DNA of 63,428 nt, filler included, from Anaerolineae bacterium (GTDB taxonomy: Bacteria; Chloroflexota; Anaerolineae; B4-G1; DUEL01), in assembly GCA_041082215.1 (NCBI GenBank). It is 7 parts of 7 records of this genome, joined end to end, with 100 filler letters (N's around TTAATTAATTAA, not from the genome) between each part and the next. Parts side by side here need not be neighbours in the genome. Positions count along the whole stretch, not along the records: positions 1 to 22,229 come from JBDOIF010000124.1; 6 more parts are not named here. One strand, given 5' to 3'. This document shows, piece by piece, positions 418-22,329 of this stretch (position 1 is its first letter; each line of letters opens with the position of its first letter). The position numbers and the translations under genes were made by a program. The notes beneath the pieces are model-generated. The model worked only from the letters and a program-made list of their open reading frames with translations. It searched no databases and was not told the DNA's origin.

Positions 418-431
418 AATCAGGTGGCGCT

Positions 432-746
432 ATGGAAGCTGAACTGCCATCCGCCTGGGTCCGCGACTTTATCCGCAAGCACGGCGGCGTCCTCAACGTC
501 GCCTGGCGGATGGTCTGCCTGGGCTGATGAAACTTCTTCAAAGGCCCGTCCGGTCGGATGGGCAAGCCAGAAAATCCGGAGGACTTTGTCCGCTTCGATG
601 CCGACGGCATGATCGTTTACGTCTCCCGACAGTTGCTGCGGGAGAAGGTGAAGCCCGGCGCGGTCGAGATGCCGTTTTACATTGACGGCTACGGCCGGTT
701 CTGGCTGCGGTTCAGGGAACCGTGGCAGCCTGAACCTGAAACGTAA
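432..746 (+). CDS. Putative small selenoprotein with tandem Sec (CLGUU), HesB-like 'CC/Se motif' type, 104 aa
   Basis: AGGTGG RBS then ATG at 432. MEAELPSAWVRDFIRKHGGVLNVAWRMVCLG is followed by TGA TGA (525-530) and continues in the same frame into the listed 558..746 ORF. A SECIS-like hairpin follows, and the read-through ORF fills the operon gap. Confidence 0.75.
544..563 (+). promoter_or_regulatory. Putative bacterial SECIS element
   Basis: GCCCGUCC-GGUC-GGAUGGGC forms an 8-bp stem (one G-U pair) with a GGUC loop starting 21 nt after the second UGA. This resembles the E. coli fdhF SECIS apical loop. Confidence 0.7.
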
Positions 747-775: not shown

Positions 776-1966
776 ATGCCAAGGATACGGGTTGATCCAG
801 AGGGCCAGATTCCACTCCCCGACAGCCTCCGCCACCGGTACGGCCTGAAAGCCGGGGAGGAGATGCTTCTGGAGGAGACGGAGACGGGGCTGGTGCTCCA
901 CCCCCTCCGGCCCGACGTGCAGAAGGTTTACCTGGAACTGACCACCCGCTGTAACCTTCAATGCCGCACCTGCGTGCGCAACGTTTGGGAAGACCCCCTG
1001 GCCCATATGACCGATGAGACCTTCCGGCGTGTGCTGGAGGGGCTGCGGGAGCTGCCCGAACTGCGGGAGGTCCTCTTCGGCGGCTACGGAGAGCCTTTTG
1101 CCCACCCCCGCTTCCTGGACCACCTGGCCTCGGTCAAAGAGCTGGGGGTCCGGGTGACCGTCAGCACCAACGGCACGCTGCTCGATGAGGAACGGGCGCG
1201 GGCGCTGGTGGAGGTCGGGCTGGATGTCCTGAGCGTTTCCGTGGACAGCGTCCGTCCGGAGACCTTCGCCGACGTCCGGCGGGGGGCGGACCTGCGCACG
1301 GTGCTGGAGAATGTGGAGACCCTGAACCGGATAAAGCGGGAGCGGGAGCGACCCAGGCCGCGGCTTCAGCTGGAGTTCGTCGCCCTGAGGCAAAACATCG
1401 CCGACCTGCCTGCCCTGTCCGACCTGGCGCGTCGGCTGGAGGCCAATCGGGTGCTGGTTACCCACGTCCTGCCCCATACCCCCGAGATGGCCGCCGACGC
1501 CCTCTACGGGCGGGATGAGACGGAGCCCCTTCCCCCCGCCCCGGGCTGGGCCCTGGAGAGCGACGGCTGGCTCCTCTGGGGCATCGTCGAACTTCCGCGG
1601 ATGAACTGGGGGGCGGAGCGGCGATGCCGGTTCGTCGCCGGAAAGGCGCTGGTGGTGGGTTGGGACGGCGGGGTCAGCCCCTGCTATGCGCTCTCCCATA
1701 CCTACCCTTATTACATCTTCGGCCGTCGCAAGAACGTGGCCCGTTACGTCCTGGGCAATGTCAACGAGACCTCCCTGGCCGAGGTCTGGACCTCCGATGA
1801 ATATGTCCGTTTCCGGGCCGAGGTGCGCCGCTTCCATTTCCCCTCGTGCGTGGATTGTGACCTGCGGGAGACGTGCGACATCACCGAGGCCAACGACGGC
1901 TGCTGGGGATGGTGCCCTTCCTGCGCCGACTGCCTCTGGGCGCAGGATATCGTGCGGTGTCCGTAG
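776..1966 (+). CDS. Radical SAM/SPASM protein (tungsten-cofactor oxidoreductase maturase type) with N-terminal AbrB/SpoVT domain
   Basis: N-terminal RVDPEGQIPLPDSLRHRYGL (AbrB-like), CNLQCRTC radical SAM motif, Cys-rich SPASM C-terminus ending CPSCADCLWAQDIVRCP. Confidence 0.8.
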   Translation: MPRIRVDPEGQIPLPDSLRHRYGLKAGEEMLLEETETGLVLHPLRPDVQKVYLELTTRCNLQCRTCVRNVWEDPLAHMTDETFRRVLEGLRELPELREVLFGGYGEPFAHPRFLDHLASVKELGVRVTVSTNGTLLDEERARALVEVGLDVLSVSVDSVRPETFADVRRGADLRTVLENVETLNRIKRERERPRPRLQLEFVALRQNIADLPALSDLARRLEANRVLVTHVLPHTPEMAADALYGRDETEPLPPAPGWALESDGWLLWGIVELPRMNWGAERRCRFVAGKALVVGWDGGVSPCYALSHTYPYYIFGRRKNVARYVLGNVNETSLAEVWTSDEYVRFRAEVRRFHFPSCVDCDLRETCDITEANDGCWGWCPSCADCLWAQDIVRCP

Positions 1967-22229: not shown

Positions 22230-22329
22230 NNNNNNNNNNNNNNNNNNNNNNNNNNNNNNNNNNNNNNNNNNNNTTAATTAATTAANNNNNNNNNNNNNNN
22301 NNNNNNNNNNNNNNNNNNNNNNNNNNNNN
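22230..22329. other. Artificial contig linker
   Basis: N-run, TTAATTAATTAA (stops in all six frames), N-run. Confidence 0.99.

Follow-up and report, generated by a model that had tools for sequence, protein, structure and literature searches.

In bacteria, the selenocysteine insertion sequence (SECIS) that directs selenocysteine (Sec, U) into a protein lies in the coding sequence next to the UGA codon, and in the textbook Escherichia coli system the spacing between the two is fixed. A review of May 2026 (PMC13188914) lists 119 prokaryotic selenoprotein families or subfamilies, and that list holds no motif of two adjacent Sec residues (UU). Its multi-Sec entries carry UxxU, CxU or UxxxxU motifs or Sec residues at separate sites, and the family NF041239 is entered there with the motif CxxU and one Sec. 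Here we describe a gene at positions 432–746 of a 63,428-nucleotide (nt) stretch of DNA (the window) from an Anaerolineae bacterium of the phylum Chloroflexota (assembly GCA_041082215.1). This is a real gene overlooked by annotation, and what is new about it, judging from sequence comparison, is that it appears to encode a UU version of an already known selenoprotein family. We put the probability that both of its adjacent UGA codons are read as Sec at roughly 0.8.

A sequence-only reading of the window had proposed the frame, and translation with TGA as U bears it out: ATG at 432–434 opens a run of 31 sense codons ending in C29-L30-G31, followed by TGA-TGA (525–530), 71 further sense codons and a TAA ending at 746. 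That reading had also held that standard gene calling overlooks the gene. Indeed, the standard open reading frame (ORF) list splits it into two separate pieces, 414–527 (37 amino acids) and 558–746 (62 amino acids), and calls only these. A further claim, that an 8-base-pair (bp) hairpin with a GGUC loop occupies 544–563, is confirmed by folding. The hairpin, GCCCGUCC-GGUC-GGAUGGGC, folds at −14.4 kcal/mol (z −3.58), and none of 200 shuffled sequences folds equally well; its 6-bp core (546–551 with 556–561) folds at −7.7 kcal/mol.

These properties fall within the bacterial SECIS (bSECIS) consensus as drawn in the review (PMC13188914 Fig. 2A), which specifies a 3–9 nt apical loop on a 4–16 bp upper stem, G at loop position 1 or 2 followed by G or U, a UGA-to-loop spacing of 16–37 nt and an energy of −7.5 kcal/mol or lower. 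The window hairpin has a 4-nt loop on an 8-bp stem, of which 6 bp are conserved, and GGUC is the loop in all 32 distinct Chloroflexota sequences considered below. Its loop lies 24 nt from the first UGA (UGA1) and 21 nt from the second (UGA2), so that both codons fall inside the permitted spacing, and both the full hairpin and the 6-bp core are stable enough. A second hairpin serving UGA1 was sought and rejected, as only a weak local stem (525–540) forms in some sequences and it is not conserved. An Rfam scan of 400–800 at E ≤ 10 returned no SECIS family and three chance-level matches (E 1.1–5.1).

When searched with C in place of U, the window protein matches NF041239, the ‘CC/Se motif family (seleno)protein’, with E = 6.1e-10 over residues 11–72, an alignment that covers profile positions 10–72 of 91 and spans the dipeptide; apart from a chance-level match to DUF5435, no other NCBIfam or Pfam model matches at E ≤ 1. 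NF041239 is also matched by 16 of 19 aligned relatives at E ≤ 0.01 (best 1e-20). In a joint alignment, UU, CC, CU, U-G and the dipeptide ‘WW’ all fall in the same two columns. CC stands at the site in P0048, P0057, P0073, P0075, P0082, P0093, P0095 and L045, and distant relatives from the same phylum carry CC (L043, L045–L047), CU (L044, L048) or U-G (L042). Thus, the UGA1 column holds Cys in the Cys homologues and U in L042, and the UGA2 column holds Cys in the CC homologues and U in L044 and L048. The three single-Sec relatives have 5–6 bp GGUC hairpins that encode VSVD rather than PSGRM and whose loops lie at 23 or 26 nt, counted from the U of the UGA. Recurrence of a GGUC hairpin while the encoded peptide differs is what would be predicted for a SECIS.

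The 432–746 protein is, on these alignments, a divergent member of the CC/Se motif superfamily, and the homology is clear. The sequence-only reading had proposed to check whether homologues carry Cys or Sec aligned with the UU and are similar on both sides of it, and this is what the CC, CU and U-G relatives show. Its label of HesB-like ‘CC/Se motif’ proteins does not stand, because it merges two families: the match is to NF041239 and not to the HesB-like selenoprotein.

When 1.84 billion representative proteins were searched with a profile, 92 matched at E ≤ 0.001. For the most part these are fragments, ending at profile position 31 or starting at 35 or 43, and thus represent the two halves as gene callers see them. 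Among 15 longer matches that were examined, the site reads CC in seven and ‘WW’ in six. A word-based search of 5.8 billion proteins found six C-terminal fragments only, and neither search found a full-length U-bearing record. One 60-residue C-terminal fragment from a Chloroflexi metagenome-assembled genome (MAG; P0003) carries the precomputed Pfam label PF28096.1, which the local Pfam copy does not report for the window protein; it may be that a more recent Pfam family already includes this half of the protein.

The double UGA is conserved throughout the Chloroflexota relatives. A six-frame search of 61 related genomes gave 29 matches in 28 genomes, near full query length and 42–78% identical to the query (98% for the genome’s own copy). 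Every one of the 29 has exactly two in-frame TGA codons, adjacent and at the same aligned position. Another 35 loci came from a pattern scan of species-representative genomes; their group names, where given, are Chloroflexota, Anaerolineae, Anaerolineales or Thermoflexales. When both searches are pooled, TGATGA and the hairpin are present in 62 of 64 loci, which amount to 32 distinct 57-nt sequences, and both codons are TGA in all 32. The two remaining loci are L082, which has a GCTC loop and a frameshift, and L083, of which only a C-terminal remnant exists. In a protein alignment of 27 of the 29 matches (one duplicate and one partial copy were left out), the invariant residues are G19, U32, U33, S40, G41, P46, F82, G86, Y87 and G88.

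Standard ORF calling implies a different product, in which TGA-TGA is a true tandem stop that separates a 31-residue peptide from a 62-residue protein started at ATG 558, the two perhaps being translationally coupled. The halves are indeed stored separately in public protein sets (the six C-terminal fragments and many of the profile fragments), and the codon for M43 is ATG in 31 of the 32 sequences. However, neither TAA nor TAG ever replaces the supposed stops, even though just 1009 of this genome’s 2056 long ORFs end in TGA. ATG 558 lies within the 3′ arm of the hairpin with no Shine–Dalgarno sequence seen before it, and one orthologue (L027) has ACG at codon 43. Homologues with CC are single chains, and the modelled fold described below needs both halves.

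Substitution patterns also argue for translation across the UGAs. Entropy at the three codon positions across the 32 sequences is 0.79, 0.60 and 1.20 bits for the 29 codons before the UGAs and 0.37, 0.50 and 1.06 bits for the 24 codons after them. The ratio of non-synonymous to synonymous change (dN/dS; Nei–Gojobori, ratio of means over pairs) is 0.34 upstream of the UGAs, 0.26 for codons 34–37 and 0.25 for codons 46–57. Codons 34–42 would be outside any product started at M43, yet they evolve as coding sequence, which indicates that both flanks are translated. We consider a true tandem stop very unlikely.

Sequence variation indicates that the hairpin itself is under selection at the RNA level. 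All 32 distinct sequences have the loop GGTC and form the inner six pairs, with changes on both sides at three of eight pairs (A-U/G-U/G-C; C-G/A-U; C-G/G-C). Synonymous variation is all but absent from the hairpin: all 32 sequences use GGT for Gly41, and 31 each use TCC for Ser40 and CGG for Arg42. In contrast, the invariant Gly19 is encoded by GGC (17 sequences), GGT (7), GGG (6) and GGA (2), and Pro46 likewise uses four codons. In L038, a C-G to A-U pair change entails an Arg-to-Leu substitution, so that pairing was retained at a cost to the peptide.

The same arrangement is found in a second lineage. A cluster of ‘WW’ proteins, represented by P0101, was traced to DNA, and 30 of 33 metagenome loci read TGA-TGA; the exceptions are L109 (TAA-TGA), L115 (chimeric or truncated) and L116 (unrelated). 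The contigs have 38–51% G+C and the protein is 35% identical to the window protein. A neighbouring CcdA is 83–87% identical to proteins named from Thermodesulfobacteriota/Deltaproteobacteria, and the lineage probably belongs to Thermodesulfobacteriota. Its hairpin, CCGAUC-GGUCG-GAUCGG, places GGUC at the same distance from TGATGA as in the window, and the peptide after UU is GPIGRIG versus GPSGRMG in the window protein. Among 19 distinct sequences, one pair varies between G-C, G-U and A-U (G-C to A-U in L110–L112), and the loop is GGUC in 18 and AGUC in one.

Reassignment of TGA (genetic code 4 or 25) was considered and rejected, because TGA is an ordinary stop in both lineages: it ends the 1009 long ORFs given above in this genome and 12 of 31 ORFs with Pfam matches in the second lineage. 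Thus, on the sequence record, the UU form is found in at least two distant lineages. Five other full-length, AT-rich proteins from contigs of at most 2.3 kb (P0011, P0028, P0062, P0072 and P0084) have ‘WW’ at the dipeptide. These are probably TGA-TGA translated under code 4, as for the P0101 cluster, and if so, further lineages carry the UU form.

The genome encodes the machinery for Sec insertion, a point that the sequence-only reading had proposed to check: selB (350 bits), selA (565 bits) and selD (330 bits) all exceed their cut-offs, selD itself carries one in-frame TGA, and a tRNA-Sec(tca) gene is located on contig C95. Four HdrA-like paralogues outside the window with the motif ...LDCSxU ILGPKMMD... 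have an in-frame TGA followed by a 7-bp GGUC hairpin (contigs C7, + strand, TGA at about 64824; C83, − strand, two sites; C141, − strand), which points to the GGUC-loop hairpin as the SECIS typical of this lineage. Counted from the U of UGA to the first loop G, the spacing is 30 nt in the four HdrA genes and 35 nt in selD, which has a GGUC hairpin as well, and 27 and 24 nt for the two codons here; all of these are inside the published bSECIS consensus. The proposal that one SECIS acts at two spacings is supported, but the spacings are not out of the ordinary for this organism, whose own HdrA and selD hairpins sit further from their UGAs.

Among the 61 relatives, selB is over the cut-off in 41. 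In one family (f3), both selB and the UU gene are absent from all 17 genomes, and the UU gene occurs only in families with selB. Of 28 genomes with the UU gene, 25 have selB, and the other three have selA, two of them with a TGA-containing selD. Because the relatives are not independent, this co-occurrence is a matter of consistency and not a statistical test.

A rival scheme would be that only one UGA encodes Sec and the other is read by a near-cognate tRNA (Trp or Cys) or skipped. The 2026 review lists the family with one Sec in a CxxU motif, which C29-x-x-U32 fits. Among the relatives, L042 has its single U in the first place and L044 and L048 have theirs in the second, and in E. coli no mechanism has been established beyond a single SelB delivery from a single hairpin. 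This scheme predicts that TGG, TGC or a 3-nt deletion should appear somewhere, yet none does: TGA stands at both positions in 32 of 32 sequences of one lineage and 30 of 33 loci of the other. Moreover, the CC homologues make both positions Cys-type, and both spacings were judged to be within the range used elsewhere in the same genome. We therefore regard a single Sec as unlikely.

Our preferred reading, in which both UGAs are Sec codons, would require the SelB/tRNA-Sec system to recode both under the guidance of one in-frame SECIS. The hairpin would start 13–18 nt past whichever UGA occupies the ribosomal A site, further than in E. coli. Given what is generally known of the mRNA channel of the ribosome, a hairpin at this distance could stay folded for both decoding events, and would thus keep its fold outside the ribosome as first one UGA and then the other fills the A site. 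At UGA1, Sec would come from a loop-bound complex of SelB, guanosine triphosphate (GTP) and Sec-tRNA. Once the ribosome has moved on by one codon, another such complex would have to bind the same hairpin and supply Sec at UGA2 ahead of release factor 2. The yield would be the product of two efficiencies, which should make expression steeply dependent on the supply of selenium.

A further rival reading is that the gene is a pseudogene in decay, or an open frame arisen by chance in this GC-rich genome (65% G+C). By chance, 127 of 2175 TGATGA hexamers (both strands) are flanked by open frames of at least 31 and at least 71 codons. GGTC-loop hairpins of at least 6 bp number 162 in 7.06 million strand-bases genome-wide, and simple arithmetic from these counts gives about 0.8 expected 20–35 nt after some TGATGA and about 0.05 after an open-frame TGATGA. 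Only one site in the genome has TGATGA, open frames and a GGTC hairpin, and this is the window site. Two related copies, L082 and L109, are broken. Against decay or chance stand the signs of purifying selection, across 32 distinct Chloroflexota sequences and 19 from the second lineage.

Sequence from independent samples also speaks against decay, as positions 525–563 are unchanged there. Independent hot-spring metagenome contigs (runs X2, X3 and X5) that span 300–898 have six differences, none of them in 525–563, and thus the tandem TGA is not an assembly slip. Five of the differences in this strain, which is about 99% identical, fall in the gene: three synonymous ones plus R15C and V23I (codons read by eye). 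A search of sequencing runs listed no RNA run that contains the sequence. A pseudogene or chance frame is barely credible.

Several observations weigh against reading both UGAs as Sec. The within-genome chance statistics are weak, and for this reason the case rests on conservation. Covariation is limited, with changes on both sides in 4 of 256 cells; the outer two pairs are unpaired in 9–11 of 32 sequences; and the minimum-energy fold of L038, the most divergent orthologue, is another structure. The hairpin also overlaps the conserved peptide GPSGRMG, and because the CC homologues P0057 and P0073 keep PSGRM too, nucleotide conservation must partly reflect constraint on the protein. In the second lineage, the corresponding 51-nt stretch is not unusually stable (z −0.6). 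The NF041239 score is 39.1 bits, which is 0.9 bits under the curated cut-off of 40, and selB was not found in three of the 28 UU genomes (72–93% complete).

Two copies depart from the pattern. L082:6001–6290, on an Anaerolineales MAG contig, looks dead: it keeps TGATGA, has the loop GCTC instead of GGTC and is frameshifted about 20 codons further on. This seems to be a copy in decay, with the SECIS and the gene being lost together. L109:752–1003 of the second lineage reads GGG TAA TGA, whereas its closest relatives L111 and L112 have TGA TGA; its TAA marks either a dead allele or an error in sequencing, on a contig of 1 kb. On the mechanistic side, the E. coli SECIS stem-loop stands at a fixed distance of 11 nt from its UGA. 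That one hairpin could make two SelB deliveries in succession is so far hypothetical, and the yield could be low. Finally, Sec insertion at either UGA is something we infer.

Even with these points counted, the original suggestion that both UGAs are recoded from one SECIS is supported by the conservation, the homologues and the machinery. The hairpin in particular, whose conservation had been proposed as a check, is found in 32 of 32 distinct sequences in the clade, with a GGUC hairpin at the same distance in the second lineage.

Table 1. Coordinates of the predicted UU selenoprotein gene, its elements and its neighbours in the window
Feature	Position	Strand	Details
Predicted selenoprotein coding sequence	432..746	+	104 residues, M1...C29-L30-G31-U32-U33...T104, then TAA at 744-746
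Cys29 codon TGC	516..518	+	Gives C-x-x-U with U32; Cys in 30/32 sequences
First in-frame UGA, residue 32, predicted Sec	525..527	+	24 nt to apical loop
Second in-frame UGA, residue 33, predicted Sec	528..530	+	21 nt to apical loop
Putative SECIS hairpin	544..563	+	8-bp stem 544-551/556-563; loop GGUC 552-555; encodes G38-P-S-G-R-M-G44
Shine–Dalgarno-like AGGTGG	422..427	+	4 nt before ATG; seen in sequence
Upstream gene, 3′ part (cut by contig start)	1..417	+	C-terminal PF04060 ‘putative Fe-S cluster’; stop TGA 415-417
Downstream radical S-adenosylmethionine (SAM)/SPASM gene, TIGR04317 ‘tungsten cofactor oxidoreductase radical SAM maturase’	776..1966	+	413 bits, cut-off 380

The gene lies between its neighbours, its ATG 14 nt past the stop of the upstream PF04060 gene (47.6 bits in Pfam, cut-off 23) and the TIGR04317 gene 29 nt past its TAA. 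No tungsten oxidoreductase gene was seen among the ORFs adjoining the TIGR04317 gene in the first 4 kb of the window. The TIGR04317 protein has a weak N-terminal match to an AbrB/MazE-type domain (PF04014, E 0.027, residues 6–46). Positions 22230–61832 contain twelve 44-base runs of N, and contig C79 covers only positions 1–22229; the window is therefore a chain of several contigs.

To classify neighbours elsewhere, selected ORFs (53 of 85, 48 of 64 and 20 hand-picked) were compared with NCBIfam and Pfam, and tallies were made by tblastn over loci of unequal length. At the 35 Chloroflexota loci, the window included, these are TIGR04317 (14), the PF04060 protein (13), ArsR (13), a cation diffusion facilitator (CDF) transporter (11), thioredoxin_3 (7) and an ArsP_1/SO_0444-type permease (6). 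At 31 second-lineage loci they are CcdA/DsbD_TM (21), thioredoxin (18), thioredoxin_3 (12), DGC domain (8) and ArsP_1, rhodanese and MauE (4 each). The 2026 review counts SO_0444 transporters and PF13192 thioredoxin-like proteins among selenoprotein families and ties such systems to metal or metalloid resistance (PMC13188914). One other neighbouring gene, L058:3575–3928 (homologues in L056, L063 and L081), lies between two PF04060 genes and encodes a YlbF/YmcA-like protein (PF06133, 66 bits) that also matches the NCBIfam model ‘halo-CC-star protein HcsL’ at 66 bits (cut-off 140).

The 432–746 product would be a cytoplasmic protein. An AlphaFold2 model of the whole chain, built from the 27-row alignment with C for U, has a predicted local distance difference test (pLDDT) score of 95 and a predicted template-modelling (pTM) score of 0.86, and places residues 31–33 in the turn between strands 20–30 and 34–43. 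The model thus puts the two predicted selenols in the β-hairpin turn of a small fold that weakly resembles IscA/SufA. The best Foldseek matches are of the IscA/SufA/HesB type (E 3e-3, template-modelling (TM) score about 0.42), with nothing in the PDB at E ≤ 0.001, and the top seven VIA-align matches are all of this type, including DsrR-type (Z 3.3–4.3 over 72–83 residues). A profile search of solved-structure chains gave no meaningful match and no IscA or SufA, and HesB/IscA family models in NCBIfam and Pfam, including TIGR01911, did not match at the sequence level.

From the gene neighbours and the weak IscA-like fold match, we tentatively infer that the vicinal diselenol, together with Cys29, might serve as a carrier, either binding a soft metal or metalloid or passing on redox, sulfur or selenium equivalents. 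The protein could act with neighbouring transporters and thioredoxin-like proteins and, at this locus, also with the Fe–S-domain protein and the radical SAM/SPASM enzyme. Two findings count against this function: the fold match has a Z-score below the level that would exclude a chance arrangement, and the gene neighbourhoods are variable. A more elaborate joint reading, which we consider doubtful, would make the Sec-Sec tip a selenium-based carrier for its operon partners and the tandem UGA a gate for selenium supply. In this scheme the radical SAM/SPASM enzyme and the Fe–S-domain protein would modify the diselenol or take selenium, metal or a cluster from it. As two SelB deliveries would be needed, full-length protein would be made only when Sec-tRNA is plentiful.

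Since the bacterial SECIS is located in the coding sequence and E. coli spacing is described as fixed, a gene with one hairpin and two UGAs is a direct test case. It would probe the positional freedom of SelB, its reloading on one hairpin between translocations and the cost in yield. If the reading is true, prokaryotes would have in this genetically encoded vicinal diselenol a natural site for redox chemistry or metals of a kind new to them. Standard annotation is blind to such genes, and public sets hold only their halves or wrong-code ‘WW’ translations. Selenoproteome surveys that allow one UGA per gene or discard tandem stops would overlook the UU class.

No report of a bacterial Sec-Sec motif was found in the searchable literature, in which an algal PDI_e selenoprotein is the only printed Sec-Sec found. 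No UU case was found by look-ups in the main texts of Zhang 2006, Zhang & Gladyshev 2007 and 2008, Peng 2016, deep-Sep, BSepDB and the Haft preprint; the supplements of these papers could hold alignments of the Moorella protein that represents the family. NCBI curators may already annotate some UU members.

The algal PDI_e protein, whose GUGUU motif is called the first Sec-Sec motif by its authors (Jiang et al. 2020, PMC7539508), likewise has two consecutive predicted Sec residues. Unlike the window protein, it is eukaryotic and belongs to an unrelated family, the protein disulfide isomerases (PDI), with a thioredoxin-like fold. The eukaryotic SECIS sits a long way downstream of the UGA, in the 3′ untranslated region, and thus imposes no positional constraint on neighbouring UGAs, whereas the putative SECIS in the window is in the coding sequence just after them.

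Carriers of the IscA/SufA/HesB type also have a reactive residue in the N-terminal third of a small β-rich protein. IscA has a C-terminal CxC, which the window protein lacks. The bacterial two-Sec families (for example NF041115 metal-binding, FmdB-family, ferredoxin-thioredoxin reductase and TsoB) share a close Sec pair, described in the review as lying in a predicted metal-binding or redox motif (PMC13188914); as given there, their Sec residues have 1–4 residues between them, unlike the window UU. The family NF041239 itself resembles the window protein in length (about 90–105 residues), in the place of the dipeptide and in the C-x-x-U arrangement. The difference is that both dipeptide residues, and not the one listed in the review, are predicted to be Sec. 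At the RNA level, the arrangement is like the fdhF-type SECIS of E. coli, where the critical loop bases are G23 and U24: a stem-loop follows right after the UGA and presents G then U in the apical loop. Here, however, one hairpin would serve two UGAs, whose distances to the loop G-U exceed the E. coli value by 3 and 6 nt.

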